Assembly: GCA_017442305.1 (NCBI GenBank)
Contig: JAFRZY010000006.1
Span: forward strand, 41,538-105,537
DNA: 64,000 bases
Direction of reading: 5' to 3'
DNA from: Bacilli bacterium
Lineage (GTDB): Bacteria > Bacillota_I > Bacilli_A > RF39 > UBA660
The notes under the pieces are model-generated. The model made no database searches and was not told where the DNA came from. It saw only the letters and a program-made list of their open reading frames with translations. Made by a program: the position numbers and the translations under genes. Positions 3,243 through 52,095 of the stretch are shown here, piece by piece (the stretch's first letter is position 1; each line of letters starts with the position of its first letter).

Positions 3243-3761
3243 TTAATATCCTTTTGAACCTTCTAAGGATTCATCATTTTCTATATATTCACTTACAAAA
3301 ATATGACGATATTTTTCTTTTGAATCTCTAATATAAATATCTTTGATTCCTGCATTTATAATCATTCTTTTGCATAAAGCACAAGGATTTGAGTTTTCAA
3401 CATAACTACCATCATTATGATTTTTACCACACAAGAATAATGTAGAATCAATCATTTTATTACGCTCAGCACTTATTATAGCATTTTGTTCAGCATGAAC
3501 ACTACGACATAGTTCATAACGTTCGCCTTTAGGAACATTTAATTTTTCTCTAATACAGGAATCTAGTTCACAACAATTTTTTCTACCTCTAGGAGCACCA
3601 GCATAACCAGTAGAAATTATTTCGTCATTTTTAACAATAACTGCACCATAATTTCTTCTTATACATGTTGAACGTTCTAGAGCAACTTCTGCCATATCTA
3701 AATAATAATTAATCTTATCAATTCTTTTCATTACTACCTCACTACTTTTTCTTAAATCCAT
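3243..3761 (-). CDS. dCMP deaminase (ComEB-like cytidine/deoxycytidylate deaminase)
   Basis: Zinc-binding motifs HAEQNAI and PCALCKRMIINAGI. Confidence 0.8.
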   Translation of the reverse strand: MDLRKSSEVVMKRIDKINYYLDMAEVALERSTCIRRNYGAVIVKNDEIISTGYAGAPRGRKNCCELDSCIREKLNVPKGERYELCRSVHAEQNAIISAERNKMIDSTLFLCGKNHNDGSYVENSNPCALCKRMIINAGIKDIYIRDSKEKYRHIFVSEYIENDESLEGSKGY

Positions 3762-3784
3762 TATATCACAAAAATTTTATTATT

Positions 3785-4669
3785 TTAATGATGATGATGT
3801 TTTATTGAACCCATCTTTGGCGGTTTACAATCTTTTTCTAAACATTCTTCTCCAGTTAGCTCATATTCAATGGTTGTATGAAAAACACCGTGTTCACTAA
3901 GCTCTTGTTTTACTGTTTCTTTTAATTTTTTAGAAAGTTTATTTACAACAATGTGCATAGTTGCATAGTTATTAACACCATCAATTGTCCATATATGAAT
4001 ATGATGAATATCTTTTATACCTTTAATAGCTAATAAATGTTTTTTTAAATCACTAATGCTTATTCCATCGGGAATTTTTTCTAAGAAAATATCGACAACA
4101 TTCTTTAAGTTTTTTAAAGCATTAATTAAAATAAAAATTGCCACCCCAATCGAAAGAAGGGAATCAATAATTTTAATATCGGTAAAACGCATTATTATAG
4201 CACCCACTAAAACAATCGCCCAATTTAAAACATCTTCTAGCATATGCAAATTTACAGATTTTTGATTTAAAGAATCTCCATCTTTTGTGTAATAAGATGC
4301 TAATAAGTTTACTATTATTCCCACTATTGCTAAGATAATCATCCCATTATAATTTATTGGAATTGGAAAAAATAATCTTTTAACTGCGTTAATTATAACT
4401 AAAATAGACCCTACTATTAAAATGCTTGTAGTAATAACACTACCAATTATTGAATATCTTACATAGCCATAAGTATATATATCATCCGGTTTCTTTTTGC
4501 TTATTCTTTCTAAAACAAAAGAAATAAAAATGCTTAAACAATCCCCTAAATCATGAATTGCATCAGATAATATCGCTACACTGTTAGTTATTGCTCCACC
4601 TATAAACTCAAAAATTGAAAACAATAAATTTAAAATAAACGCTATTAATATATTTTTTTCTGATTTCAT
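3785..4669 (-). CDS. cation diffusion facilitator (CDF) family metal efflux transporter
   Basis: Six TM helices, cytoplasmic C-terminal domain, His-rich tail (HHHH). CDF signature region SDAIHDLGDCLSIFISF. Confidence 0.85.
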   Translation of the reverse strand: MKSEKNILIAFILNLLFSIFEFIGGAITNSVAILSDAIHDLGDCLSIFISFVLERISKKKPDDIYTYGYVRYSIIGSVITTSILIVGSILVIINAVKRLFFPIPINYNGMIILAIVGIIVNLLASYYTKDGDSLNQKSVNLHMLEDVLNWAIVLVGAIIMRFTDIKIIDSLLSIGVAIFILINALKNLKNVVDIFLEKIPDGISISDLKKHLLAIKGIKDIHHIHIWTIDGVNNYATMHIVVNKLSKKLKETVKQELSEHGVFHTTIEYELTGEECLEKDCKPPKMGSIKHHHH

Positions 4670-6594: not shown

Positions 6595-6909
6595 TTAATC
6601 TAATTCTTTTTTTGACTTATTCATTTTAGTTAAGGCTTGATTTATTTTTTGTTCTTCAGCTTCTTCTAAAGAATACCAACCATTATTAAACGCTAACTCA
6701 TAAGCTTCTCTAGCCTTATTTTTTGTCTCATTAAAAATTTTAAACACCTCTTTAAATAAGTATTTATTACTCATCTCATCAATTGCTATAGAATAATTAT
6801 TACTAACATTTTTTAATGTTAATAAAACATCATTTAAAATATCTTTATCATTCATTTCTTTAGTTGATGGTACTTCTTTCATTTTACATTCTATTTTTTT
6901 ATTATTCAT
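6595..6909 (-). CDS. spore coat protein F-like (Coat_F domain)
   Basis: Pattern D.L...L...K.....Y..A..E..N..L...F..........A...Y......GWY, typical of the CotF/YraF family. Confidence 0.45.
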   Translation of the reverse strand: MNNKKIECKMKEVPSTKEMNDKDILNDVLLTLKNVSNNYSIAIDEMSNKYLFKEVFKIFNETKNKAREAYELAFNNGWYSLEEAEEQKINQALTKMNKSKKELD

Positions 6910-24313: not shown

Positions 24314-25282
24314 CTAATTACAATTAAATCCGTTTGACTCCATTTCAAATTTAACTGTTTTTACATTTGTTTTATAATTGTAATAATAATTATTTTCTAT
24401 ATTTGTTAAATCAACATTTTGTAAATCCAATAAAGCATTAAATGTAAATCCTGTTTCATTATTAATTAAAGTTGCGCTTACTCCATCATAATTATTATAA
24501 GTAGCAGCATTAAGTTGATAATTTTTTAATAGTTCTGAATAAGCTATTGTATTTTCAAATGGATAGTTAATAACATCATTAATACTTATTAACATTGAAT
24601 TTCCAAATGTATATGTTATTTTTTCATATTTATTTTCACAAACTAAAATTCCTTTACCATCTTCATTTAGAGTTAAATTCACTTCAGGATAATCAGCTTC
24701 GGTTTTAGTACTTATTAGTAATTTAGAAACATTTCCACTTACATTATCATCTAAAACATATTCATAATTTTTAACGCTACTAACATCAATCGTCCCAAAA
24801 CTTATTTTTATTCTTTGTAACAAAGTGTTATCACTAGAATATATTTCTAAAAATTGTTTTTTTTCTTTCATATCAAGAACTGCATCTGTATTGTTTTTTA
24901 AATCAAAATATATTTTATTTTCAGAAATGATAATATTAGACATTGTAAATGATTCATGGTTAATAGCTAAATCTTCTGTATAATCATAATATACTGGATT
25001 TTCTTGTTCGTTAGGCAATTGTTCTTTATCTACATCTTCCGGCTCATTAACAGCTGGTTTATTAGTAATATTTGTATTATTACCGTTTAAATATGCTTCA
25101 ATATAATTTGTTATATCTGGCATAAAAATTGCAACTGCAATAAAAATTATAAAAATAATTATTAGTAAAACTGGACTTTTCTCACTTTTGTCTAGTTTTC
25201 CAATTATTGTTGGAGTTAATTCTTTATCCACAATCACTATATTTTCATTCTTTTTCTTTGCCATATTATCCCTTCTTACCAT
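24314..25282 (-). CDS. hypothetical membrane-anchored protein (N/Y-rich ectodomain)
   Basis: N-terminal TM LLIIIFIIFIAVAIFM. No family assignment. Immediately upstream of scpA. Confidence 0.45.
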   Translation of the reverse strand: MVRRDNMAKKKNENIVIVDKELTPTIIGKLDKSEKSPVLLIIIFIIFIAVAIFMPDITNYIEAYLNGNNTNITNKPAVNEPEDVDKEQLPNEQENPVYYDYTEDLAINHESFTMSNIIISENKIYFDLKNNTDAVLDMKEKKQFLEIYSSDNTLLQRIKISFGTIDVSSVKNYEYVLDDNVSGNVSKLLISTKTEADYPEVNLTLNEDGKGILVCENKYEKITYTFGNSMLISINDVINYPFENTIAYSELLKNYQLNAATYNNYDGVSATLINNETGFTFNALLDLQNVDLTNIENNYYYNYKTNVKTVKFEMESNGFNCN

Positions 25283-25323: not shown

Positions 25324-25674
25324 TTAGTCCTTTGGTTTAAAGATAAAACTTAATATTGCTGAAAATACAACAGCACTTACTATGGCAGCTGAAGCTTTAG
25401 TTAAAAGATGCGTAAAACACCCAATTAATCCGGATTCATTTAATCCTATTAAACCACCTTGATAAAGCATATGGCCAAAATTTGAAATTAAAACTGTTGC
25501 ACCTGCCCCTGCAAAATCTATTAATTTTTCATAAAGCCCCAAAAATGATAGTATTGCTCCTAAAACTGTGAACAAACTTGTAACATGACCCGGAGTTAGA
25601 TTGGTGTTATCAAGTATCATTTGGGCTATAGCACATACTAATCCCGAGAAAATAAATGCCGAAAAAAATATCAT
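25324..25674 (-). CDS. spoVAEB: stage V sporulation protein AEB
   Basis: 116 aa; collinear with B. subtilis SpoVAEB (MIF..AF..G..C.I.Q...D...LTP.H..S...V.GA.L...GLYE.L...AGAG). Confidence 0.8.
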   Translation of the reverse strand: MIFFSAFIFSGLVCAIAQMILDNTNLTPGHVTSLFTVLGAILSFLGLYEKLIDFAGAGATVLISNFGHMLYQGGLIGLNESGLIGCFTHLLTKASAAIVSAVVFSAILSFIFKPKD

Positions 25675-26648
25675 TATATGACCTCCAAACTAACAGCGTG
25701 AGCAATTGCTGGAATTGTATTTTTTTGATTAATTAATGATACTGTATGCAAAGAACCGGTCCCAATTATTAAGATTTTTTTATACTTATTGGTTTTTAAG
25801 ATTCTATTAAAAAGTACTAATGGCAAAGCAACTGGACCACTAGCTCCAGCATATGTTTCTTGGTTATCTAAATAAAGTTCGCTTCCAGCATCAATATGTT
25901 TTTTTAACTTCAAATCATAACTACGTTTAATATATTCTCTAAATATTTTTGTACCAATTTCTCCTAAATCCCCCGTTAATATTAAATCATAATAATCACT
26001 ACTACGTTTTAAATCTAATAAATGGCGTGCCAACGTTTCTGCAGCTGCTGGAGCCATAACCGCTCCCATGTTATTTGCATCTTTCATTCCCATATCTATC
26101 GGAATACCTATTGTTGCTGAATCAACTCGAATTTTACTTTTTTCATTAGTTAATAAAGCTCCTACACAACCTGTAGCAGTAAATGTTGCTGTATGAGGCT
26201 TAGGAGCACCATATTCAACCGGAAAACGAAATTGTTTTTCGCTATTTAGATTATGACTACTTGTTACTGCAATTATATTATTTGCTTGTTTACTATTTAT
26301 CAAATTTGCTCCTACAGAAACACTTTCTACAAATGTAGCACAAGCACTATATAGTCCTAAAAAAGGGATTTGATAATATTTTGCACTATAACTAGAAATA
26401 GCAATTTGATTATATAATTCCCCGCCAATTAAATAATCTATATCTCCATCTAACAATTTATTTTGTAATAGCAAATTATCAATTACTATTCGTTGCATTT
26501 TAATTTCTGCTTGTTCAAAAGTCTTTTCTCTATAATAATAATCATCCATAGTTAAATCAAACTTTTTTATTTGCCCATTTTTTTCAAGCGGACCTGCAAT
26601 ACTAAAACTATTTTTTATATAAACATTATCAAATTTTAAACTAGACAT
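25674..26648 (-). CDS. spoVAD: stage V sporulation protein AD (thiolase-like)
   Basis: ~325 aa thiolase-fold protein in spoVAC-AD-AEB order. Overlaps neighbours by 1 and 13 nt. Confidence 0.85.
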   Translation of the reverse strand: MSSLKFDNVYIKNSFSIAGPLEKNGQIKKFDLTMDDYYYREKTFEQAEIKMQRIVIDNLLLQNKLLDGDIDYLIGGELYNQIAISSYSAKYYQIPFLGLYSACATFVESVSVGANLINSKQANNIIAVTSSHNLNSEKQFRFPVEYGAPKPHTATFTATGCVGALLTNEKSKIRVDSATIGIPIDMGMKDANNMGAVMAPAAAETLARHLLDLKRSSDYYDLILTGDLGEIGTKIFREYIKRSYDLKLKKHIDAGSELYLDNQETYAGASGPVALPLVLFNRILKTNKYKKILIIGTGSLHTVSLINQKNTIPAIAHAVSLEVI

Positions 26649-27079
26649 TCTATAACCATCCTTATCATAAGTAACAGAAAAGCGCTTAATATACCATAAA
26701 GAATAACACTTCCTGCAAGTTTGAAAAAGTTTGCTCCAAGTCCTGTAATTAAACCATCTTTTTTATAATCAAGAGCACTACTACTAATAGAATGAGCAAA
26801 TCCGGTAGTAGGAATTATTAATCCTGCTTTAAATTTTGTTACTAAATTATCAAAAAAACCCAAGGAAGTTAAAAAACATCCAATAAATATTAAACTAATA
26901 CAGAGCCAAATAAAAGCTTCAGTTCTTGATACTCCGCAAAAATTCATAAGTATATAGATTTCTAATTCTCCTAAAACACCAACAATACCGCCACTTAGAA
27001 ATGCTAGCAAGGTATTTTTTACTTTGTTTTCTTTGGGAGTTAAAGACTTTACTAATTTTTTATATTCATCTTTATTCAT
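26636..27079 (-). CDS. spoVAC: stage V sporulation protein AC
   Basis: Collinear with B. subtilis SpoVAC (KKLVKS..PK..V.N.L.AFL.GG..., IPTTGFAHSISSSALDYKKDGLITGLGANFFKLAG). Confidence 0.85.
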   Translation of the reverse strand: MNKDEYKKLVKSLTPKENKVKNTLLAFLSGGIVGVLGELEIYILMNFCGVSRTEAFIWLCISLIFIGCFLTSLGFFDNLVTKFKAGLIIPTTGFAHSISSSALDYKKDGLITGLGANFFKLAGSVILYGILSAFLLLMIRMVIECLV

Positions 27080-27095
27080 ATTATTCCTCCACCTT

Positions 27096-27124
27096 TATTA
27101 TGTAAAAGCTATTAATTTTTATGC
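27096..27124 (-). promoter_or_regulatory. forespore sigma-G/F-type promoter upstream of spoVAC (GCATA-17-CATAATA)
   Basis: Minus-strand -35 GCATA (plus 27120-27124), 17-nt spacer, -10 CATAATA (plus 27096-27102). Matches the B. subtilis sigma-G consensus GHATR-17/18-CATnnTA. RBS AAGGTGGAGG follows. Confidence 0.55.
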
Positions 27125-27141: not shown

Positions 27142-27789
27142 CTACATAGTCATGTATTGACGCATTTTTTCTATTCCCTTTTTCTCATAACGCGAAACCA
27201 TTACTTGAGTCATATTTAAAGTTCTTGCTACCTCGCTTTGAGTCATATCTTTATAATATCTCGCTTTTATGATTTCTCTTTCTCTATCATCAAGTCTATC
27301 TAAAGAATCAAATATATCTATTCTTTCTTCCATAGATATATTTTCTCTACATCCCACTGTTTCATAATAACTTCTTTCATTATCCGGTTGTTCATCTAAT
27401 GATTTAACAGCTTCCATGCAGCTAGTTGCTTGATTAATAATTTCTTCATCCAATTCAAGATATAATGCTAACTCTTGATTAGTTGGAATTTTTCCATATT
27501 TTTGAGCTAAATCATAACGAGTTCTTTCGGCTAATTTTCTAACCTTTAAAAGATATTGATTTATTTTTAATGGATTATTATTACTTACTAATGTATACAT
27601 TGCTCCATAAATATATGGATAAGCATAAGTGCTAAATTTAGTAGTTCCATCACTTTTATAATTTTTATAAGCTTGAAGCAAAGCTCCTACTCCAACTTGA
27701 AATAAATCCTCAAAATCAGCATTATAAAATTTTTTACAAACATTTAATATTAATCCCTTATTCGCTTCAATTATTTCTTCCGGTGTCAT
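27142..27789 (-). CDS. sporulation sigma factor, SigF/SigG-family (sigma-70 regions 2-4; short N-terminus)
   Basis: DLFQVGVGALLQAYKNY...FSTYAYPYIYG (region 2) and REREIIKARYYKDMTQSEVARTLNMTQVMVSRYEKK (region 4), near-identical in pattern to B. subtilis SigF/SigG. Only 215 aa. Confidence 0.85.
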   Translation of the reverse strand: MTPEEIIEANKGLILNVCKKFYNADFEDLFQVGVGALLQAYKNYKSDGTTKFSTYAYPYIYGAMYTLVSNNNPLKINQYLLKVRKLAERTRYDLAQKYGKIPTNQELALYLELDEEIINQATSCMEAVKSLDEQPDNERSYYETVGCRENISMEERIDIFDSLDRLDDREREIIKARYYKDMTQSEVARTLNMTQVMVSRYEKKGIEKMRQYMTM

Positions 27790-27798
27790 ATATGCCTC

Positions 27799-28131
27799 CT
27801 AGACTTCAATTAATTCTAGCGCTGTTAGTTCATTAGCAGTTTTTTTAATTTTTATTCTTTTCATATTTTTTTCTAACTCTTTTGACACTTCACATAAACA
27901 GATTTTCCCTTTATTAGTACGAATAGCACATTTAGTATTTAAAATTGCATCAAGTCCTGATTCATCAATGCCCTCAAGTAAATACATGTTATATACTAAA
28001 TATTTTATTTTATGTTTTAAAATAACAGGTACTAAGTAATTATTTAATTTATAACTACTACGGCGATTTAATATTCCATCCAATCTTACAAATAAGATAC
28101 CTTTACTATATTCCAAATCCATTTTTAACAT
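27799..28131 (-). CDS. anti-sigma factor antagonist, STAS domain (SpoIIAA-like)
   Basis: STAS pattern with conserved phosphorylatable Ser in DESGLD (cf. SpoIIAA DSSGLG). 9-nt gap to the sigma gene. Confidence 0.75.
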   Translation of the reverse strand: MLKMDLEYSKGILFVRLDGILNRRSSYKLNNYLVPVILKHKIKYLVYNMYLLEGIDESGLDAILNTKCAIRTNKGKICLCEVSKELEKNMKRIKIKKTANELTALELIEV

Positions 28132-28225
28132 ATTATCACCTTGCTAATTTAATATAGTAAAATTTCTTTACATTTTAAACAAATTCGACAAAACATGCTA
28201 AAAAAATACCAGTATAAACTGGCAT

Positions 28226-29638
28226 TTAATTTAATATACTATGTAATTTTTCTTGAGCGCTGGATACTGATTCTGGATCAGGAACCATTACATATAATTT
28301 ACTTGCAGAATGGGTATAGGTGTAATCATAACTATCTGTACCATTTAAATTTATAGTTTCAAAACTCCACGATTCATTATTTTCAAGCTGTTTTTTTATA
28401 ATTGATGTAATATCTTTATCTTCCATATTAGTAACAAAGCTGCCCTCTAAAGAATTTAATAGTCCACTGTATTTTGTTATTATAGTTGGAGATAACGCTT
28501 TATTAATAATAGCTTCTAACACTAATTGTTGGTTTTCTCCTCTTACTCTATCACCATCTTTAAAAGCTTTTCGCTCACGAACAAACGATAAGGCTTCTTT
28601 ACCATTTAAGTAGTTTTCTCCTTTTTGATAGTGATATCCGTCTCGTGATGTAAAACTATAGTTAGAATTTACTTTAATACCACCTAGTTCATTTACAACT
28701 TTTATTAAAGAAGTAAAGTTTACTTTTAAATAGTAATTAATATCTATATCTAATAAATCTTCGATAGTTTGAACTGACTTTTCAATACCATAAACTCCAG
28801 CATGAGTAAGTTTGTCTTTGTACCCTTTAGTACCATGCAATTGAACATAGTAATCTCTCGGAATCGAAGTTAATACTATTTCATTTGTATTAGGATTAAC
28901 AGTTACAACAATATTAACATCACTTCTTGATACACTGGTAATTTTACCATAAGAATCAATACCAGAAATATAAATGTTAAACGCATCTTTGGTTACATCA
29001 ACTTTTTTATCAATACTTTCTACTTCGATATCAATAGAAAATTTATAAATTTCTTTTACTTTAGAATTTAGTTCTTCATTTTCTTCAGAAATAATTAAGT
29101 ACTTAGATTCTTCAATTACCATGGCATCAATCTCTTTGTTTAGCAAAGCATCAACAATTTTTTCAATACTACTGTATTCTTTTTTCTTAAACGAAACGCT
29201 TTTTGATAAAGTTTTTGTCGCCATATCTATATTTTCATCAACTAAGATTCCTATTTTTTTGTCTTCTAAATCTTTTATTTCAATTGATTTACTAGATTTT
29301 AATACTAATACATTATAATTTAAAGTTTTATAATTAAATTTACCAAAATCTCCAAAAAAATCTAAAGTGGTAAATTCAAAAAAAGCTCCTATTAACATAA
29401 CTATGGAAATTACTAGTGACATTACTATCCCTATTAATCTAGTAATTTTTTTCTTACTGTGTATAAATTTGATTGTTAATAAATCAATTATAACTAATAC
29501 GCCTAATATTATTAAAAAATATTTTAATGGTACAACATTCAAAAGAATTGTTAAACCTATAAATAAAATGTTTATAACCAAAAGTATAATTGTAAATATT
29601 TTTGATACAAGTTTTCTCTTTTTACTTTTTCTTGCCAT
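28226..29638 (-). CDS. LytR-CpsA-Psr (LCP) family cell-envelope phosphotransferase
   Basis: N-terminal TMs plus LCP core LTSIPRDYYVQLHGTKGYKDKLTHAGVYG...YYLKVNF. Confidence 0.85.
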   Translation of the reverse strand: MARKSKKRKLVSKIFTIILLVINILFIGLTILLNVVPLKYFLIILGVLVIIDLLTIKFIHSKKKITRLIGIVMSLVISIVMLIGAFFEFTTLDFFGDFGKFNYKTLNYNVLVLKSSKSIEIKDLEDKKIGILVDENIDMATKTLSKSVSFKKKEYSSIEKIVDALLNKEIDAMVIEESKYLIISEENEELNSKVKEIYKFSIDIEVESIDKKVDVTKDAFNIYISGIDSYGKITSVSRSDVNIVVTVNPNTNEIVLTSIPRDYYVQLHGTKGYKDKLTHAGVYGIEKSVQTIEDLLDIDINYYLKVNFTSLIKVVNELGGIKVNSNYSFTSRDGYHYQKGENYLNGKEALSFVRERKAFKDGDRVRGENQQLVLEAIINKALSPTIITKYSGLLNSLEGSFVTNMEDKDITSIIKKQLENNESWSFETINLNGTDSYDYTYTHSASKLYVMVPDPESVSSAQEKLHSILN

Positions 29639-29725: not shown

Positions 29726-30886
29726 TTAATTAGTAATCAAACTTTTTCCGCTAGTTATTTCATTTAAATTTCTTTTAAATAAATCCCATAAATTAGCTTT
29801 TTTAATATCTTCCTTTATAGTTATTTTACTTTCTATAACTATATGTCCTTCGTTATCTATTATTTCGACAGTTCCGATAATATCACCGTTTTTGACTGGA
29901 GCTTTTATTTTTTTATTAAGCAACGTGTTAAATGTATAATTAGATTCTTTATCAGTAACTTTTAGTAGTTCAGTTGCATCATTTAATAAAACTACTGTTC
30001 CATATTCTTGCTTACCATTTAGAATTCTAACTTTACCTAACTCTTGTTTTTTATTTAATATCACTTTTAATTTATAAGTATTAAATCCATAGTCAAGTAA
30101 ATTTACTGTATCACTACTTCGTTTGTCAGCTGTTTCTACTCCCATAACTACAGAAATAAGTCTTAAGTCTTTTTTTTGAGCAGTAGCAGTTAAGCAATAT
30201 CCAGCTCCAGAAGTAAATCCAGTCTTTAGTCCATCTACGCCATCATAAAATCTTACTAAACGATTAGTATTAACTAGCCAAGTAGTTGATCCATCAGGTT
30301 TAGGCATGTAGTATTCATATATACTTGTAAACTCTAAAATCTTAGAATATTTTAAAAGTTCTTGAGCAATAATTGCCATATCATGAGCTGTTGTATAATG
30401 ATTTTCTTCATCTAACCCATGAGGATTTACAAAATTAGTATTTAAAAGACCTAATTCTTTGGCTCTATTGTTCATCATTTTAACAAAAGCCTCTGTAGAT
30501 CCCGCAACTTTTTCAGCCATTGCAACAACAGCATCATTTCCGGACGCTATAGCAATTCCTTTTAACAATTCCTCTACTGTGTATATTTCGCCTGCCTCTA
30601 AAAACACTTGACTTCCACCCATACTAGACGCATTTTCAGATATAGTGACTTCTTCTTGCATATTAATCTTTTCATCATCAACAGCTTCCATTATTAAAAG
30701 CATACTCATTACTTTAGTCATAGATGCTGGAGCTAGTTTTTCGTTAGAGTTTTTTTCAAACAAAATTTTTCCGGTTGTTTGTTCTATTAATATAGCACTT
30801 TTTGAGTTAGGAGCTAAATCTTCTTGAGCGTTAATTTGACTCATAAAAACAAACAAAGAAAAAATTAAGAATACAATTTTTTTCAT
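29726..30886 (-). CDS. D-alanyl-D-alanine carboxypeptidase (PBP5/DacF-type, S11)
   Basis: Signal peptide; SxxK (ASMTK), SxN (ASGND), KTG (LKTGFT) motifs; C-terminal domain. Sits upstream of spoIIAA-like, as dacF does in Bacillus. Confidence 0.85.
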   Translation of the reverse strand: MKKIVFLIFSLFVFMSQINAQEDLAPNSKSAILIEQTTGKILFEKNSNEKLAPASMTKVMSMLLIMEAVDDEKINMQEEVTISENASSMGGSQVFLEAGEIYTVEELLKGIAIASGNDAVVAMAEKVAGSTEAFVKMMNNRAKELGLLNTNFVNPHGLDEENHYTTAHDMAIIAQELLKYSKILEFTSIYEYYMPKPDGSTTWLVNTNRLVRFYDGVDGLKTGFTSGAGYCLTATAQKKDLRLISVVMGVETADKRSSDTVNLLDYGFNTYKLKVILNKKQELGKVRILNGKQEYGTVVLLNDATELLKVTDKESNYTFNTLLNKKIKAPVKNGDIIGTVEIIDNEGHIVIESKITIKEDIKKANLWDLFKRNLNEITSGKSLITN

Positions 30887-30934: not shown

Positions 30935-32836
30935 TTATCTCCGAGAAATGTTTTCTTCATCTAGAAGCTCTCTAGTTTCTTGAATTTCTCCTTCTATACT
31001 TCTAATTTCTGCTTTACTAGAATGGCTTAACAGTAATTTGCCTAACCGCTTTTTTTCTTCATTAGCTAATTTAACGGCTTCTAATTCACGTTTCAACCAT
31101 AATAATCTGTTTCTCAATTCTTCTTTATCTAATTTTTTTAATTCTTCTAGTTCTTCTAATCTATTTAGCTTATTTGTTGATTTTGCAAGTCCTACAGCAG
31201 ATAAAATACCAAATAATACTGCTGCAGAAACCATTATTAATTGATTATTAAATTTTATAACATACTCTTTTTTTGCATCATAAATTAATTGATCGACCCT
31301 TTTTTCTACATCAAACTCTTCTTTTATTTCTGCTTCAACTGGTGTTATTAATGTGTCATATACATCAGAATGAATTTGAGGCAATATTAAATGAGCATCA
31401 TTTTCAATAATTATATCCATATCAACCACATCACTAGTCAATTGGTCCAAGTAAGTAGCATCAACATAAAAATATTCATTATCAACTTTTACTAAATTAT
31501 AAGCATGATACTCGCTGCCGACAGTATAAGCTTCTACACCAAAGCGATTTAATAAAATTTCCATCAATGCTGCATAATTACCACAAATAACTTTACCATT
31601 TTCATCTAAAATTCCATATAAATAACCATCTTGATAACTTTTTTTAGTTTCTTCAACCAAAGCTTCTGGTTGTTGGCCAAAAATATTTGCTTCCACTCCT
31701 TCTTCTTCTTGAATTTTAGCTGAATCTTCATTATATGATAAATTTTTTAATACATACTCCAATATGATATTTAATTTTTCTTTATTACTGGCTTTTTCAT
31801 CAATATGAATTTCTTTAACTATATTATCTACCATATCATATATCCTATTTACTTCATCTATATATTCATCTAGTTTATAACCAACAGTATCTACTCGAAT
31901 TTCCATGTTTGATTTAAAAAGTTTATTAAAATCTTCTCTACTAAAAATTAAAGGAATGTCATATTTACCATTTCCAGAGTCAGGAAAAATTTCTAAAGTA
32001 TAAAAATTCATTAATTTATTTATATCAACATTTTGACTTCTTACACCAAAATTAAGTAAAGATAAATGTGCTATTCCATTTTTCGTTTCAATCCATTTTT
32101 GAAGAAATTCACTGTTTAACGAAAATATTGTAGAATCCAACTTAAGAACATTTAAATTAGGGCAATTATTTAAAAATCCAAAATAATCTTCATCTACGGA
32201 AAGGGCTTGGCCAGTATATCTTCTTTGATTAGCTTTTACTTCTAATCGATTCAAATTAGGTAAAGATTTAATTTGTTTCAAACACTCTTCTGCTCCAGGA
32301 TTTTGAAATTCTATACTTAATTTGTATAAATTTTCACAATAATTTAACCATGAAATATCAGAATCATCATAAATATCAATTTCATTAATCCAGTCTAATT
32401 CTTGAATTTGTTTTAAATCACCAACTGTTATAACGCATTCCGGATCTTCTTCTTTATTTAATGATCTTAAAATACTGCTTTTAAACGACGAATTAATATT
32501 AACAACATCACTATCTTGTTTGTTAGCAGCATATATTAAGTTTTTTGGCTTTTCTTCTTTTTTTTCTTCGGTTAAGTTTTTTTCATAATTATTTATTATT
32601 AGGTCTTTAAATAAAGTTTCTTCATTTGTAATTAAATCTATTGAATTTGTCGTAGTTGTATAAGTTCTTCCCATATCATCTACAACTTTAATTTGATGTT
32701 CCTTTATAATATTAGAATATATAAAAAGTGTTACAGTGCTTACAACTCCAGCTAAGGATACTGATAATACAGTTTTACCGGCTTTTACTAATTTTTGTAA
32801 TGTTGCCTTTTTGTGTTCAGGATTACATGTTATCAT
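30935..32836 (-). CDS. large membrane protein with transglutaminase-like Cys-His-Asp core
   Basis: N-terminal TM. Core VICGNYAALMEILLNRFGVEAYTVGSEYHAYNLVKVDNEYFYVDATY (C/H/D). C-terminal TM plus coiled coil. Confidence 0.5.
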   Translation of the reverse strand: MITCNPEHKKATLQKLVKAGKTVLSVSLAGVVSTVTLFIYSNIIKEHQIKVVDDMGRTYTTTTNSIDLITNEETLFKDLIINNYEKNLTEEKKEEKPKNLIYAANKQDSDVVNINSSFKSSILRSLNKEEDPECVITVGDLKQIQELDWINEIDIYDDSDISWLNYCENLYKLSIEFQNPGAEECLKQIKSLPNLNRLEVKANQRRYTGQALSVDEDYFGFLNNCPNLNVLKLDSTIFSLNSEFLQKWIETKNGIAHLSLLNFGVRSQNVDINKLMNFYTLEIFPDSGNGKYDIPLIFSREDFNKLFKSNMEIRVDTVGYKLDEYIDEVNRIYDMVDNIVKEIHIDEKASNKEKLNIILEYVLKNLSYNEDSAKIQEEEGVEANIFGQQPEALVEETKKSYQDGYLYGILDENGKVICGNYAALMEILLNRFGVEAYTVGSEYHAYNLVKVDNEYFYVDATYLDQLTSDVVDMDIIIENDAHLILPQIHSDVYDTLITPVEAEIKEEFDVEKRVDQLIYDAKKEYVIKFNNQLIMVSAAVLFGILSAVGLAKSTNKLNRLEELEELKKLDKEELRNRLLWLKRELEAVKLANEEKKRLGKLLLSHSSKAEIRSIEGEIQETRELLDEENISRR

Positions 32837-33246: not shown

Positions 33247-34332
33247 ATGAAAATAAAAATTAATTTTTTAAAAATTTTACTTATAGCTATTTTACTCTGC
33301 GGATTTGCTTTTATTGCCAAAAAACTATTTATAACTGAAAGTTCATATAACAATGATGCTATAGCAATAATGAAAGAACTCAATATATATGACAAAGTAG
33401 ATCAAAACAAATACTCAAAAACTTTAGAAGAAATGCTTATTAATAATAGTTTTAATTCAAAATATGTGGATGTTTATACTGAAATTAATTTTGTAAATAA
33501 ATCTAATTTTCTAAATGTTGTCAACACTTTGCTAGAAAAAGAATATAGTGCCAGTGAAATTAATATGATACTTGCCAATTTAAGTGATAATAACATTGAT
33601 AATTTACTAGAATTAGAATATCTAAGTTTAGAAGATTTTTATTTAATAAAAAATTTAAATGTCCTAAAAATTAATGAATACAATCAATACAAAAAAGAAA
33701 ATAGTGTAACAACAGAAGAAGCGGTAACCCAAGTAAATATAGGACTTAATAATAAATACTATACAAATATTATAGAAGTAGAAAATCCTGATGATTTACT
33801 AGTATTGGTAAATAAATATCGAGCATTGCCTGCAGATTATATTCCAGAAGATTTAGTAAGTTTATCAAATGGTAGTCAATTCCAATTAAGACGCGTTGCT
33901 GCCGAAGCTTATGAAAAATTAATTGATTATGCTAGCGACAACGGTATTGAAGTTTTACCTTTTAGTGGATATCGATCATATAACACTCAGAAAGTTATTT
34001 ATAATAACCATGTTAATAACAATGGGCGTGATAGAGCTGATACGTACTCTGCTCGTCCAGGACACTCTGAACATCAATTAGGACTTGCAGTTGATATTCG
34101 TTCTAAAGATTACGAACTCAAAAGACTTACACCAGATGATGCTAAATGGATTAACGAAAATTGTAGTCAATTTGGATTTATTGTTCGCTACACAAAAGAA
34201 GATGAATTTATTACCGGGTATATGGAAGAAACTTGGCATTTAAGATATGTTGGCATTGAAGTAGCAAAAAAAGTAATGGATTTAGGAATCACTTACGACG
34301 AATACTATGATTTATATATTGAAAAACACTAA
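33247..34332 (+). CDS. D-alanyl-D-alanine carboxypeptidase, VanY/M15B family, membrane-anchored
   Basis: N-terminal TM. M15 motifs SGYRSYNTQ and PGHSEHQLGLAVDI. Confidence 0.8.
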   Translation: MKIKINFLKILLIAILLCGFAFIAKKLFITESSYNNDAIAIMKELNIYDKVDQNKYSKTLEEMLINNSFNSKYVDVYTEINFVNKSNFLNVVNTLLEKEYSASEINMILANLSDNNIDNLLELEYLSLEDFYLIKNLNVLKINEYNQYKKENSVTTEEAVTQVNIGLNNKYYTNIIEVENPDDLLVLVNKYRALPADYIPEDLVSLSNGSQFQLRRVAAEAYEKLIDYASDNGIEVLPFSGYRSYNTQKVIYNNHVNNNGRDRADTYSARPGHSEHQLGLAVDIRSKDYELKRLTPDDAKWINENCSQFGFIVRYTKEDEFITGYMEETWHLRYVGIEVAKKVMDLGITYDEYYDLYIEKH

Positions 34333-34360
34333 AAAAGGATTATTTACTAATCCTTTTTCT
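34331..34360. repeat. 30-bp direct repeat copy 1 (hairpin terminator AAAAAAGGATTATTTACTAATCCTTTTTCT)
   Basis: Identical 30-mer recurs at 35849-35878. Contains the AGGATTA/TAATCCT hairpin flanked by A- and T-tracts. Overlaps the stop of ORF 34347-34793. Confidence 0.8.
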
Positions 34361-34793
34361 CTAACTTTCTAATTAATTTCAAGCCAGAACTCTCTTTTGC
34401 CAACATAATTTCTATTTTTTTAAAACACTCATTTCTCGAATCGAACTTCAAACCCACCAATTCTTTTTCGCTTACCAAAAACATTTTTGAGATTAAACAA
34501 TCATGATAATGTTCTAATATATTTCCGTCCGCATCAATATGATCATGTGAATGGCCTTTTTCTGAATCAGATGAAACATAAACATCTAAAGTACCATCTG
34601 CTCTTTCTCTTACTGTATAATCAGTTTGCCCATATGTTCCTGAATTTCCATACGTTCTATTTCCATCATATCCTGGTTCAGATAATTCATCTCCATCTTC
34701 TTTTTCCCTAGCAGTTTCTATATTAGCGTCCCAAAACCATCCCATATTACTTATTCCTTTCTGATAACCATATATTTCTTGTATAAGAACCAT
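34347..34793 (-). CDS. hypothetical protein; C-terminus (EKKD-stop) encoded by the repeated terminator sequence
   Basis: ORF; probable real start at the internal Met MGWFWD (~34743). Last four codons and stop lie inside the 30-bp repeat, as pnp's do. Confidence 0.35.
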   Translation of the reverse strand: MVLIQEIYGYQKGISNMGWFWDANIETAREKEDGDELSEPGYDGNRTYGNSGTYGQTDYTVRERADGTLDVYVSSDSEKGHSHDHIDADGNILEHYHDCLISKMFLVSEKELVGLKFDSRNECFKKIEIMLAKESSGLKLIRKLEKKD

Positions 34794-35070
34794 ATAATTT
34801 ATTATTTTCTATTTTATAACCATAATCGGGTCCAAAATTAGGAATGTTAGGTTTCATATCTACAAAAAACATTTCTATATCGGTATATTTTAAATTATCG
34901 TTAACTGCATTTGCTAAAATTTCGTACTCATATTCTGTTATATTTGATAAATCAAAAATAAAATCTTTCTCATATTCATACTTAATTATTGGCACAATTA
35001 TTGTTTCAACTTTTTGTGTTTTTGAATTTTCTATTTCTATTTGTGCATTCATAAAATCACCCTTTCGCAA
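34747..35070 (-). CDS. hypothetical protein (107 aa)
   Basis: ORF only. Confidence 0.3.
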   Translation of the reverse strand: MRKGDFMNAQIEIENSKTQKVETIIVPIIKYEYEKDFIFDLSNITEYEYEILANAVNDNLKYTDIEMFFVDMKPNIPNFGPDYGYKIENNKLYGSYTRNIWLSERNK

Positions 35071-35072
35071 AT

Positions 35073-35717
35073 TTAAATTTTATCTCTTATTCTACAATAT
35101 TCTTCTTGTGAAATTTCTAAACCTAGATCTAATCGTTTATTAAAATCAATGTGATGAAATAAATAATCTTTACTATACTTTGATATATAATTTATTCCCC
35201 AAAATTTTTCTAGTGGAAAAAAACAAATTGAATTAACAAAGCTATAATCCGCAACACATAACTCTCTATATTCTTTTTCAATTATATCAAATAATTTCAT
35301 ATCAGACAGTATTTCTGTAGCATTTAATATTATTCTACAAGATTGTAGCTCTGCTTGTCTTTCTATCGGATTAACAAAATACATATCTTTACTATATAAT
35401 TTGTTTTCTTTTAATTTTTTTTCTAATTGAGATGCGTCTACCAAAATCTTTGTTTCAAAGTTATTGTGACCAGTAATCATTTTTTCTTCTTGTTTTATAT
35501 GTTCTATTTCATGAAGTAAAACTCTTATTATATGTAAATTTAAATATAATAACTTGTGAAAATAGTCACTACCAAATAAACGTTTTGAACAATCGACTCC
35601 TATAGCAAATATTAATTTTAGATAATTAATATATATTGTTTTTGTATCTATAGAATAACGTGCAAGAAAATCACTTTTGTAATTAGATATAATTATATTA
35701 TTGACATATAAATTCAA
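35073..35717 (-). CDS. hypothetical protein with HExxH zinc-metallopeptidase motif (ImmA/SprT-like?)
   Basis: Motif LLHEIEHIKQ. No other family evidence. Confidence 0.35.
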   Translation of the reverse strand: MNLYVNNIIISNYKSDFLARYSIDTKTIYINYLKLIFAIGVDCSKRLFGSDYFHKLLYLNLHIIRVLLHEIEHIKQEEKMITGHNNFETKILVDASQLEKKLKENKLYSKDMYFVNPIERQAELQSCRIILNATEILSDMKLFDIIEKEYRELCVADYSFVNSICFFPLEKFWGINYISKYSKDYLFHHIDFNKRLDLGLEISQEEYCRIRDKI

Positions 35718-51032: not shown

Positions 51033-51590
51033 TTAATATCCTTTTTTCTTATAACGTTCATATAATTCTTTAAAACGATTAAAGTGAACTACTTCTCTTT
51101 GTCTTAACCATAGTAGTGGTCTTAGTACATCTTCATCATTTGTTAAATCAATTAAGTTTTCATATACTGCTCTCGCTTTTTGTTCAGCTGCCATGTCTTC
51201 CATTAAATCTGCTATTGGGTCAGCTGTTACTGCAAAATATGTAGCTGTAAACGGTACACCTGAAGCGTCAGTTGGATATACTCCTTTATTATGATCAGCA
51301 TAATATGAACCTAAACCAGCTTGTTCTAATTCTTTTACAGTTGCATCTTTAGTAAGTTGATGAACCATTGAACAAATCATTTCACAGTGACCTAACTCTT
51401 CAGTTGCAATATCATTAAGTAGAGCTTTACCATATTCATCTGGCATTGTAAACTTTTGAGAGAAGTAACGCATTGCTGCAGCTAGCTCACCATTAGCACC
51501 ACCAAATTGTGTTAATAAATATTTAGCCATTTTTAAATCTTTTTTTCGTATATTAATTGGAAAGTTAGTGTGTTTTACATATTTAAACAT
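51033..51590 (-). CDS. cotJC: spore coat protein CotJC (Mn-catalase family)
   Basis: Collinear with B. subtilis CotJC (QFGGANGELAAAMRY, TEELGHCEMI, PFTATY, PIADLMEDMAAEQKAR). Start chosen at internal Met MFKYV, which has a GGAGG RBS. The track ORF begins 14 codons further upstream. Confidence 0.85.
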   Translation of the reverse strand: MFKYVKHTNFPINIRKKDLKMAKYLLTQFGGANGELAAAMRYFSQKFTMPDEYGKALLNDIATEELGHCEMICSMVHQLTKDATVKELEQAGLGSYYADHNKGVYPTDASGVPFTATYFAVTADPIADLMEDMAAEQKARAVYENLIDLTNDEDVLRPLLWLRQREVVHFNRFKELYERYKKKGY

Positions 51591-52095
51591 ACATTGAACC
51601 TCCTTCGTTATCCCAAGGCCATGGATTTTCAAGCCATTTATATTTGTTTCCTACTTCATCATTAATTGTTAATGGACCATACATCTTGTTAAATTCTTCT
51701 TTTAGTTTTTTCTCTTCCATAATGTACTGTCTTAGAAGTCTAACTCCTTCTTGATCATCAGGATATAAATCCAAATATAAATTTAAATCTGTAATTGCAA
51801 AACATAAAGCCATAATATCGTATAACTTTTTCTCTCTTTCTGTCTTCGGATTTAATGGTAGATAAGTTAAATTTTTATAAGGCTTATATTCATCGCGAAA
51901 CATGTTACCACGCATAAAACCCTCTTTCACTGAAAATAGTTCGTTATTTTCTCTAGGAATGTCATTAAAATTACTGCCGGGAATTTCAAAAAAAGTTAAA
52001 TTAACATCATAATCGTTATTATCAAATAACATATAAAAAATACCTCCTACATTATAGTATGAGGTTTTATAAAGTTGGGTTGTGCTAATACCCAA
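51583..52095 (-). CDS. CotJA-CotJB fusion protein
   Basis: N-terminal half resembles CotJA. C-terminal half carries CotJB motifs LNLYLDLYPDD ... YGPL ... WPW. Stop overlaps the cotJC start (ATGTTTAA). Confidence 0.6.
   Translation of the reverse strand: MGISTTQLYKTSYYNVGGIFYMLFDNNDYDVNLTFFEIPGSNFNDIPRENNELFSVKEGFMRGNMFRDEYKPYKNLTYLPLNPKTEREKKLYDIMALCFAITDLNLYLDLYPDDQEGVRLLRQYIMEEKKLKEEFNKMYGPLTINDEVGNKYKWLENPWPWDNEGGSMYV

Follow-up and report, generated by a model that had tools for sequence, protein, structure and literature searches.

The SpoIIE/SpoIIAA/SpoIIAB switch is the textbook account of how cell-specific expression is set up after asymmetric division, and to our knowledge the kinase and anti-sigma factor SpoIIAB and the phosphatase SpoIIE have been regarded as universal in spore formers, being kept even by Candidatus Arthromitus with its extremely streamlined genome. 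The locus described here raises the question of how a SigF-type sigma factor might be controlled where the gene for its SpoIIAA-like partner is followed directly by the sigma gene. It lies in a window (the whole stretch of DNA that was analysed, 64,000 nucleotides) from an uncultured, low-GC lineage of Bacilli with reduced genomes. Among the relatives of the window organism is one named 'Mycoplasma sp. CAG:776' (order RF39), and CAG-776 has been placed in RF39/UBA660 (PMC13155120); the window organism itself is assigned to RF39 through such relatives. The genes of the locus are the following:

29726..30886, minus strand: family S11 DD-carboxypeptidase (Peptidase_S11 1.5e-83, and PBP5_C)
28226..29638, minus strand: LCP (LytR-CpsA-Psr) glycopolymer transferase gene, between the carboxypeptidase and STAS genes
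27799-28131, minus strand: SpoIIAA-type single-domain STAS gene, 110 aa (Pfam STAS E = 2.9e-11)
27790..27798, minus strand: STAS-sigma spacer of 9 nt, with a Shine-Dalgarno sequence AGGAGG (27795-27800) overlapping the STAS stop codon
27142-27789, minus strand: SigF-like sigma gene, 215 aa, with sigma-70 regions 2, 3, and 4
26636-27079, minus strand: spoVAC (Pfam and NCBIfam), downstream of the sigma gene
25674-26648, minus strand: spoVAD (Pfam and NCBIfam)
25324-25674, minus strand: spoVAEB (Pfam and NCBIfam), closing a spoVAC/AD/AEB block at 25324..27079

The distance of 9 nt between the STAS and sigma genes, given in a preliminary description of this DNA, is exact; the spacer holds a ribosome-binding site and is too small for another gene. 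The same description had stated that no SpoIIAB gene stands between antagonist and sigma genes, and this is borne out by the 9-nt gap and by a layout that is repeated across assemblies and species. The insertion of an LCP gene upstream is also confirmed, the family assignment being made by HMMs; this gene is found at loci L001, L007, L008, L049, and L086, and is absent from L009 and L010. As for the carboxypeptidase, which had been called DacF-like, its HMMs identify it as an S11 DD-carboxypeptidase, whereas orthology with DacF is positional and putative, and no DacF-specific model was matched. The gene stands where dacF stands in Bacillus. Other spore genes of the window are those coding for CoatF, CotJB, CotJC, and SpoIIIE, whereas the SpoVS call comes solely from L001, a locus identical to this one; three tRNAs were all that Rfam and tRNA searches detected in the window. 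The S11 carboxypeptidase and LCP genes on the upstream side, the spoVA genes on the downstream side, and a Spo0A box ahead of the STAS gene support a reading of the locus as the counterpart, by position, of the spoIIA operon.

The STAS protein had been described as SpoIIAA-like, and both the coordinates and the assignment hold. Besides the Pfam STAS match, its best NCBIfam model is that of spoIIAA (TIGR02886), with 40.1 bits, under the curated equivalog cut-off of 114.75; against the superfamily model TIGR00377 it reaches 39.5 bits, under the cut-off of 53.45. Its AF2 model (pLDDT 93, pTM 0.84) has as top Foldseek match the SpoIIAA chain 1THN_B (TM 0.92, rmsd 1.5 A, 30% identity), and the single-domain STAS fold (beta-alpha, four helices) is present according to Pfam, AF2, and Foldseek. 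The SpoIIAA hallmark of a gene directly upstream of spoIIAB is absent, the STAS gene adjoining the sigma gene here as in 80/80 relatives. For the sigma protein, the NCBIfam scores fall from SigF (TIGR02885, 140 bits, curated cut-off 321.45) through SigBFG (TIGR02980, 134.6 bits, cut-off 234.35) to SigG (113) and SigB (60), and the sigma-70 superfamily model is the only one whose cut-off is passed; in Pfam, regions 2 and 4 match and region 3 is slightly under cut-off. The closest solved structure is sigma-F (1L0O_C, 99 bits), SigA reaching 56 bits. The earlier assignment to the SigF/G family therefore stands, with SigF as best model and sigma-F as best structure, and a place outside the sporulation sigma family finds no support. 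The shortness of the protein (215 aa), also noted at that time, corresponds to the loss of ~30 N-terminal residues relative to SigF: the alignment begins at residue 31 of 1L0O_C, and the 252-position SigF/G model is matched from position 35 on. In relatives, the length of the sigma protein is 212-220 aa. Judged by these models, the sigma protein is closest to SigF, yet the pair falls outside strict SigF and SpoIIAA family membership.

The layout had been taken as real, and its conservation agrees with this. Six independent assemblies, made from different samples and with different assemblers, show it unchanged, and the STAS gene lies directly before the sigma gene in 80/80 of the related species representatives examined, with a gap of -29 to +18 nt (mode -1). 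An assembly or annotation artefact, for example a collapsed deletion, is refuted by this agreement of six assemblies with 80 other species and can be regarded as next to impossible. Relatives at 76-53% sigma identity retain the pair even with different flanks. The order STAS-sigma-spoVA, again free of any HATPase gene, recurs in another STAS clade that is only distantly related (~36% identity) and whose sigma proteins reach 171-190 bits against the SigF model. Hundreds of related species have sigF beside spoIIAA in this way, and STAS-sigma pairs are available from more than 450 species. The dN/dS values are 0.03-0.15 for STAS and 0.04-0.20 for sigma, and relative to the window proteins, STAS has a median identity of 65% and sigma one of 50%. 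In one lineage (L071/L072), STAS looks decaying (dN/dS 0.5) while sigma is still constrained; therefore, STAS is not indispensable to sigma.

The second peculiarity of the pair concerns the site at which the classical switch works. Ser58 is the phosphorylated residue of B. subtilis SpoIIAA, and an acidic residue at this position mimics there the phosphorylated, SpoIIAB-inactive form. The corresponding codon of the window gene is:

27961..27963, minus strand: Glu57 codon GAA, in the column of B. subtilis SpoIIAA Ser58, at the N-terminus of helix alpha-2

The correspondence between Glu57 and Ser58 comes from a phmmer alignment to 1TH8_B, 1TID_B, and 1AUZ_A; the column is the site mutated to Ala in 1TID, and the AF2 model of the STAS protein has a helix at 57-72. 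A phosphorylatable Ser had been claimed in DESGLD, but this claim was off by one, since the Ser of the DESG motif aligns with Ser59 and not with Ser58. The replacement extends over the clade, where the Ser58 column holds E in 70, D in 6, and N in 4 sequences (80/83), and the residue after it is S in 46, A in 18, and D in 5, with no conserved Ser. Among 130 representatives of the wider family, the Ser58 column is freely variable.

The partners of the classical switch were searched for around the pair. No SpoIIAB-like sequence was found in ~83 kb around the locus nor in the first 90 related loci (~10 kb each), and when SpoIIAB of B. subtilis and of G. stearothermophilus was used as tblastn query, the window and these 90 loci gave only chance matches (E of at least 1.8); the sequence taken for B. 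subtilis was confirmed only as a close SpoIIAB homologue (232 bits to 1TIL_A). Pfam found no HATPase or PP2C domain in the window ORFs scanned nor in ~19 kb of flanks, and no SpoIIE-type PP2C phosphatase among the window ORFs scanned. Small unannotated ORFs at 34347-35717 were considered as a hidden anti-sigma factor and rejected, as they have no Pfam match and are not conserved beside the pair in relatives. Natural fusions of STAS and sigma were also looked for with the concatenated proteins, as Rosetta-stone evidence, and no true fusion was obtained: the two full-length matches are both artefacts. In one (P0271), translation table 4 turns into Trp an in-frame TGA that is a genuine stop in the clade, and in the other (P0272), the STAS is frameshifted. 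[quoted passage not shown] For whole genomes, the absence of SpoIIAB is taken from this one survey. The preliminary description had left a choice between spoIIAB elsewhere and a different wiring; clade-wide loss of the serine and this survey favour the different wiring, and they speak against a kinase/phosphatase partner switch that still operates.

The regulatory motifs of the locus are the following:

28200..28222, minus strand: hairpin CCAGT-TTAT-ACTGG, then TATTTTTTT (T-run on the minus strand); stem found by scan
28184..28192, minus strand: Spo0A-box-like motif TTTGTCGAA, 59 nt upstream of the STAS start codon
28151..28179, minus strand: sigma-A-like promoter hexamers TTTAAA-17-TATATT, directly downstream of the 0A box (consensus scan)
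27096..27124, minus strand: forespore-type (sigma-F/G-like) promoter motif GCATA-N17-CATAATA, upstream of spoVAC

The 0A-box consensus is well established, and a perfect TGTCGAA is present at -58 to -66 in 75/80 related loci, versus 2.8% of background 200-nt windows; the motif is also seen in L092-L094. Spo0A would bind at this conserved box ahead of the STAS gene. The sigma-A-like hexamers are a putative promoter, and blocks of GTTTAAAA and CTATATT are conserved among the related loci compared. The hairpin is likely the terminator of the LCP gene, and because it would end transcription of that gene, STAS and sigF may form a separate transcription unit. Further downstream, GYATA-N17/18-CATAATA is conserved ahead of spoVAC as a putative forespore-type promoter: the pattern G[ACT]AT[AG]-N16-19-CATN[ACT]TA, a consensus derived from B. 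subtilis sigma-F/G promoters, is found in 25/36 loci with spoVAC versus 0.46% in the background.

We therefore hold it to be very probable that this is a spoIIA (sigF) operon which has been reduced throughout the lineage, with a Spo0A-box promoter, STAS, an N-terminally shortened sigF, and spoVA behind a forespore-type promoter, and with neither spoIIAB nor the acceptor serine. Because spoIIAB is gone and the acceptor serine is lost, the SpoIIAB/SpoIIE partner switch cannot operate on this STAS protein. At the same time, STAS must keep a role tied to SigF, because it is under strong purifying selection, is conserved above sigF, and in nearly all cases lies a few nucleotides from the start of sigF or overlaps it. 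Most likely, STAS would act directly on SigF or on a non-kinase anti-sigma factor. Of these two, direct binding to SigF is the mechanism that we favour, although it is a tentative proposal and, taken by itself, less probable than not. We know of no experimental precedent for direct binding between a STAS protein and a sigma factor, and the lack of natural fusions and the decaying STAS of L071/L072 count against the proposal. According to this proposal, STAS would be made in step with SigF and would bind SigF itself, acting independently of phosphorylation to hold it or as an anti-sigma factor, and the activity of SigF would be timed by relief from STAS and not by a phosphatase. The locus might have arisen by one deletion that took away spoIIAB and, with it, the first ~30 codons of sigF; the missing spoIIAB and the short sigma could be explained together because a single deletion would remove both. 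To the whole explanation, a reduced, phosphorylation-free spoIIA operon with binding between STAS and SigF, we give a probability of about 0.5.

Other explanations have to be weighed against this one. STAS could be an anti-anti-sigma factor for a non-kinase anti-SigF protein encoded elsewhere, with control by ligand, redox state, proteolysis or abundance. The SpoIIAA fold is almost perfectly kept (TM 0.92 to SpoIIAA from SpoIIAB complexes), selection on STAS is strong, and precedents are HsbA/FlgM, with a non-kinase anti-sigma factor, and RsfA, with no phosphorylation. However, no third gene is conserved beside the pair, STAS and sigma being all that stays the same where the flanks differ, and residue 57, which varies freely across the wider family, suggests a classical docking centre that has been freed from its old constraint, so that this arrangement is unlikely, although it is to be taken seriously. 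The classical switch, with a perhaps very divergent SpoIIAB and with SpoIIE encoded elsewhere in the genome, would have to work on a STAS protein whose acidic residue mimics, in B. subtilis, the SpoIIAB-inactive form. It would also have to work in a clade where the acceptor serine is replaced in 80/83 members, where the following residue is no conserved Ser, and whose first 90 related loci gave zero SpoIIAB-like matches. The data covered ~83 kb of the genome and ~10 kb per relative, and the wording 'reduced presence or complete absence' lets some RF39 members keep the genes (PMC10868615); even so, we strongly doubt that the classical switch operates here.

The pair might alternatively be a paralogous SigB-like or SigG-like STAS/sigma module, the true spoIIA operon lying elsewhere. 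The scores far under the curated SigF, SigBFG, and SpoIIAA cut-offs would fit such a module, but the SigF model is on top (140 bits, versus 113 for SigG and 60 for SigB), the distant clade gives 171-190 bits with SigF, the best solved structure is sigma-F, the neighbouring spoVA and S11 carboxypeptidase genes are arranged as in Bacillus, and a Spo0A box is in front of the pair; a paralogue is thus very improbable. If endospore formation had been lost in the lineage, the operon would be a remnant or would be re-used, SigF working like any other alternative sigma factor and STAS having an unrelated role. The machine-learning tool SpoMAG scored RF39 genomes 0% for sporulation (PMC12536801), spoIIE, spoVD, and spoVB are reported missing in RF39 (PMC10868615), and no cultured spore-former is known in RF39, where spores have never been observed. 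On the other hand, RF39 has been predicted to be able to sporulate (PMC10868615), and genome-based predictors that treat spoIIAB as universal (PMC12536801) will by their design score these organisms as non-sporulating. The locus itself also speaks against this loss, with purifying selection on STAS and sigma, the Spo0A box at a fixed position in 75/80 species, the forespore-type promoter motif ahead of spoVAC, and a contig that still carries intact spoVA, cotJ, coat F, spoVS, and spoIIIE genes, and we consider such a loss rather improbable.

The reduced operon proposed here can be compared with several known systems. It shares with the B. subtilis spoIIA operon a promoter that would be controlled by Spo0A, a SpoIIAA-fold STAS first and a SigF-type sigma last, spoVA directly downstream, and a DD-carboxypeptidase (dacF in B. 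subtilis) upstream. It differs from it in being without SpoIIAB, in the change of Ser58 to Glu, in a sigma factor ~30 residues shorter N-terminally, in the inserted LCP gene, and in two proteins that are well under the family cut-offs; furthermore, B. subtilis has the SpoIIE phosphatase, which is reported as reduced or absent in RF39. The RsbV-RsbW-SigB system and other GHKL partner-switching modules also have a single-domain STAS encoded with a group-3 sigma factor, but they always involve an RsbW-type kinase/anti-sigma factor, a PP2C phosphatase, and a phosphorylatable Ser/Thr on STAS, none of which was found at the window locus. Another example is the STAS antagonist RsfA of mycobacteria, which is redox-regulated with no phosphorylation, and a further one is the STAS antagonist HsbA of Pseudomonas, which binds the non-kinase anti-sigma factor FlgM. 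In both, as proposed here, STAS control of a sigma factor dispenses with phosphorylation or goes through a non-GHKL anti-sigma factor; however, they have a known anti-sigma partner and control non-sporulation genes, whereas the window locus shows no such partner. Finally, a physical link between STAS and sigma has been described in Actinoplanes missouriensis, where sigma-SsdA has a fused STAS domain to which the anti-sigma domain of SipA binds (PMC10733313). The link is there by fusion, whereas the STAS and sigma of the window are separate proteins, with no true fusions and no SipA-like partner seen.

The known system is thus the spoIIA operon, and what is new is its lineage-wide form without SpoIIAB and without the acceptor serine. 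A broad and abundant gut lineage would have kept a Spo0A-controlled sigF and spoIIAA under selection while it lost the kinase together with the acceptor serine and, as reported, the phosphatase as well. It is possible, if on balance doubtful, that RF39 and the second related clade still sporulate with a two-protein, phosphorylation-free module in which STAS holds SigF and replaces both SpoIIAB and SpoIIE. The biological significance lies in two outcomes: either forespore-specific transcription would be set up by another route, which would make this lineage a natural experiment on a minimal switch, or the module may have been re-used for something else.

The operon of the window keeps a developmental promoter, a STAS gene and a sigma gene, and is devoid of both the kinase/anti-sigma gene and the phosphorylation site. 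The positions of the pair claimed in the preliminary description agree with the window sequence, including the 9-nt distance that leaves no spoIIAB between antagonist and sigma factor.

27096-27124: forespore-type promoter motif GCATA-N17-CATAATA, between sigF and spoVAC
27142-27789, minus strand: sigma factor gene (215 aa; sigma-70 regions 2, 3 and 4)
27790-27798, minus strand: STAS-sigma spacer (9 nt)
27799-28131, minus strand: STAS protein gene (110 aa; Pfam STAS, E = 2.9e-11)

A ribosome-binding site (AGGAGG) overlaps the STAS stop codon. According to Pfam and NCBIfam, the genes spoVAC, spoVAD, and spoVAEB lie downstream of the sigma gene, and genes for an LCP transferase and a family S11 DD-carboxypeptidase lie upstream of the STAS gene. 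Farther upstream, the 633-aa protein of 30935-32836 (minus strand), with only a weak transglutaminase-like (DUF553) match and a long charged coiled C-terminus, is encoded between the S11 gene and a VanY-type carboxypeptidase gene (33247-34332, plus strand), and is absent there in the related loci L007 and L008. Three small ORFs follow one another between the VanY gene and PNPase (34347-35717, minus strand); the ORF finder gives them 214, 107, and 148 aa, none matches a Pfam family, and this region differs in L007.

The layout is not an assembly artefact. Against a collapsed deletion hiding spoIIAB, the same arrangement was found throughout, both in at least six independently assembled contigs from different samples and assemblers and in the best 80 of 451 relatives retrieved by a one-genome-per-species scan. 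The STAS gene immediately precedes the sigma gene in 78 of these 80 (tblastn), and a more divergent STAS-like ORF (98-105 aa) occupies the same site in the other two; the gap ranges from -29 to +18 nt, a 1-nt overlap being the commonest. In four relatives with sigma identities of 76%, 62%, 53%, and 53%, a 110-aa STAS gene directly precedes a 212-217-aa sigma gene, and the pair is kept, with no spoIIAB inside it, even where the flanking genes wholly differ. In the 62%-identical relative (L008, 4803-5559), two small membrane-protein genes (DUF4234 and DUF2752) are inserted between the LCP and STAS genes; therefore, the operon's upstream flank is fluid and the STAS-sigma junction is not. Another related locus, L083, has a second, distant sigma-like sequence at 3286-3813, which shares 28% identity with the sigma of the window and is located some 2.2 kb upstream of the STAS-sigma pair.

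Regarding family assignment, the best curated model for the STAS protein is the anti-sigma-F antagonist SpoIIAA (TIGR02886; 40 bits vs a cut-off of 115). The sigma factor scores best with SigF (TIGR02885; 140 bits), followed by SigB/F/G (135), SigF/G (130), SigG (113/104), FliA (87), and SigB (60), all under the respective cut-offs; its placement nearest to SigF is upheld. Against solved structures, its top match is the sigma-F of the SpoIIAB complex 1L0O (99 bits; SigA 56, FliA 46). The alignments begin at residue 31 of that chain and at position 35 of 252 in the SigF/G model; therefore, about 30 N-terminal residues are missing, in accordance with the reported shortness. Judged by the curated cut-offs, both proteins fall outside the SpoIIAA and SigF equivalog families; their fold, best matches, synteny, and promoter mark them as divergent orthologues of SpoIIAA and SigF. 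The AlphaFold model of the STAS protein (pLDDT 93, pTM 0.84), in which residue 57 starts helix alpha-2, best matches the SpoIIAA chains of SpoIIAB-SpoIIAA complexes (TM 0.92, rmsd 1.5 A), and the fold, as predicted, is intact.

The serine of DESGLD had been proposed as phosphorylatable, and this does not hold. In phmmer comparisons with known structures, GIDESGLDAIL aligns without gaps to FMDSSGLGVIL of SpoIIAA, thus placing Glu57 on the first serine of FMDSSG (Ala in the 1TID/1TIL chains), which is Ser58 of B. subtilis SpoIIAA. Among 83 clade members, this acceptor column holds Glu in 70, Asp in six, and Asn in four, and no conserved serine is present in the next column either (Ser 46, Ala 18, Asp 5). 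With the STAS protein of the window as query, 242 relatives were retrieved from 1.84 billion representative proteins. In the 130 that are full-length, I-D-x-x-G is retained around the acceptor column, the column itself admits nearly any residue (E, K, I, L, N, S, D, Q, Y, M, V, T, R, A, G), and the canonical FMDSSG occurs only once.

The loss of the acceptor serine points, as independent sequence evidence, in the same direction as the absence of spoIIAB. With SpoIIAB queries, of which the B. subtilis one was confirmed by a PDB search as a close SpoIIAB homologue, the lowest tblastn E-value across the window and the first 90 related loci was 1.8. Pfam scans of the window ORFs detected neither a HATPase-type nor a PP2C domain, nor was there any such gene among the gene calls of about 19 kb past both window ends. 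Titles of the relatives' records ("uncultured Bacilli," "Tenericutes," "Mycoplasma sp. CAG:776") include CAG-776, a genus of the RF39 family UBA660 (PMC13155120); the window GC is 25-30%, and from its relatives we infer that the organism belongs to RF39 or is closely related to it. In RF39, spoIIAB and spoIIE have been described as reduced or absent in a single sentence of one published survey, which annotated high-quality Bacilli genomes (PMC10868615). Turicibacter, a relative in the same tree region, has the canonical SpoIIAA-SpoIIAB-SigF trio (PMC13492147). In the literature searched, no description was found of how the operon is built, of a SpoIIAA that is kept yet cannot be phosphorylated, of the shortened SigF, of the conserved Spo0A box, or of the layout extending to a second clade.

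Several results indicate that the module is still in use. The dN/dS of the STAS gene is 0.03-0.15 in 11 of 12 species pairs, as low as or lower than that of the sigma gene (0.04-0.20). In 75 of 80 loci, a perfect Spo0A-box core, TGTCGAA (28184-28190 in the window, inside TTTGTCGAA), precedes the STAS start by 58-66 nt; among 200-nt background windows, only 2.8% have this core. Conserved GTTTAAAA and CTATATT blocks lie downstream of it. The motif GCATA-N17-CATAATA fits the B. subtilis forespore (sigma-F/G) promoter type, and G[ACT]AT[AG]-N16-19-CATN[ACT]TA occurs in 25 of the 36 loci having spoVAC there (background 0.46%). Other spore genes share the contig; therefore, the organism keeps a sizeable spore gene set.

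6595-6909: coat F
between 20429 and 20790: spoVS (called on L001, a locus identical to that of the window)
51033-52095: cotJB and cotJC (Mn catalase)
52160-54385: ftsK/spoIIIE

The 322-aa product of 24314-25282 (minus strand) has a membrane segment at its N-terminus, matches no Pfam family, and may be an undescribed sporulation-associated protein; in relatives, its gene keeps its place between spoVAEB and scpA (L001 and L007, 316 aa; L008, 298 aa). We know of no observed RF39 spores, and one predictor, SpoMAG, scores RF39 as non-sporulating (PMC12536801).

Among the distant STAS clusters, the largest comprises proteins of 115 aa with about 36% identity to the window protein; a profile search with it gave 575 relatives. 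Three members on long contigs (L092-L094) show a Spo0A box, the STAS gene, and then a 219-222-aa sigma gene, followed by spoVAC/AD/AEB in two (L093 and L094), and no HATPase gene was found in any of the three loci. Their sigma factors reach 171-194 bits on the SigF and SigB/F/G models, above the window sigma, always with SigF over SigG and with alignments starting at about position 34 of the SigF/G model. Thus, two or more deep clades of uncultured Bacilli share the reduced operon, which is not confined to one species. Separately, a STAS-sigma fusion in the protein record P0271 (L091 779-1747, GCA_037193545.1, a genome labelled mycoplasma-like) was rejected: an in-frame TGA is read there as Trp, apparently under translation table 4. 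In the clade TGA is a genuine stop, ending 19 of 84 sigma genes at normal length, and the wrong genetic code has probably been used to annotate some relatives.

In B. subtilis, removal of SpoIIAB unleashes SigF, and removal of SpoIIE or SpoIIAA silences it. The STAS protein is more conserved than the sigma factor (median identity to the window protein 65% vs 50%), its gene is the only one always beside the sigma gene, and the close spacing means that translation of the two is probably coupled; direct SigF binding is therefore judged its likeliest role. The STAS protein would thus bind and hold SigF without phosphorylation, as a holding or anti-sigma factor, a tentative reading with a probability of about 0.35. 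The main alternative, that it still antagonises some non-kinase anti-sigma factor, appears rather unlikely. Speculatively, one deletion that began in spoIIAB and reached the 5' part of sigF could explain the absent gene together with the shortened sigma factor. In one sub-lineage (L071 5691-5936 and L072 367-669), the STAS-like ORF is down to 106 and 100 aa, no longer has the I-D motif, and shows a dN/dS of 0.5, next to a sigma gene that is still constrained (0.15). This looks like ongoing gene loss, and suggests that the STAS protein is a regulator that can be dispensed with, not an obligatory assembly factor. In a lineage without SpoIIAB and SpoIIE, the control of SigF must be different or absent.
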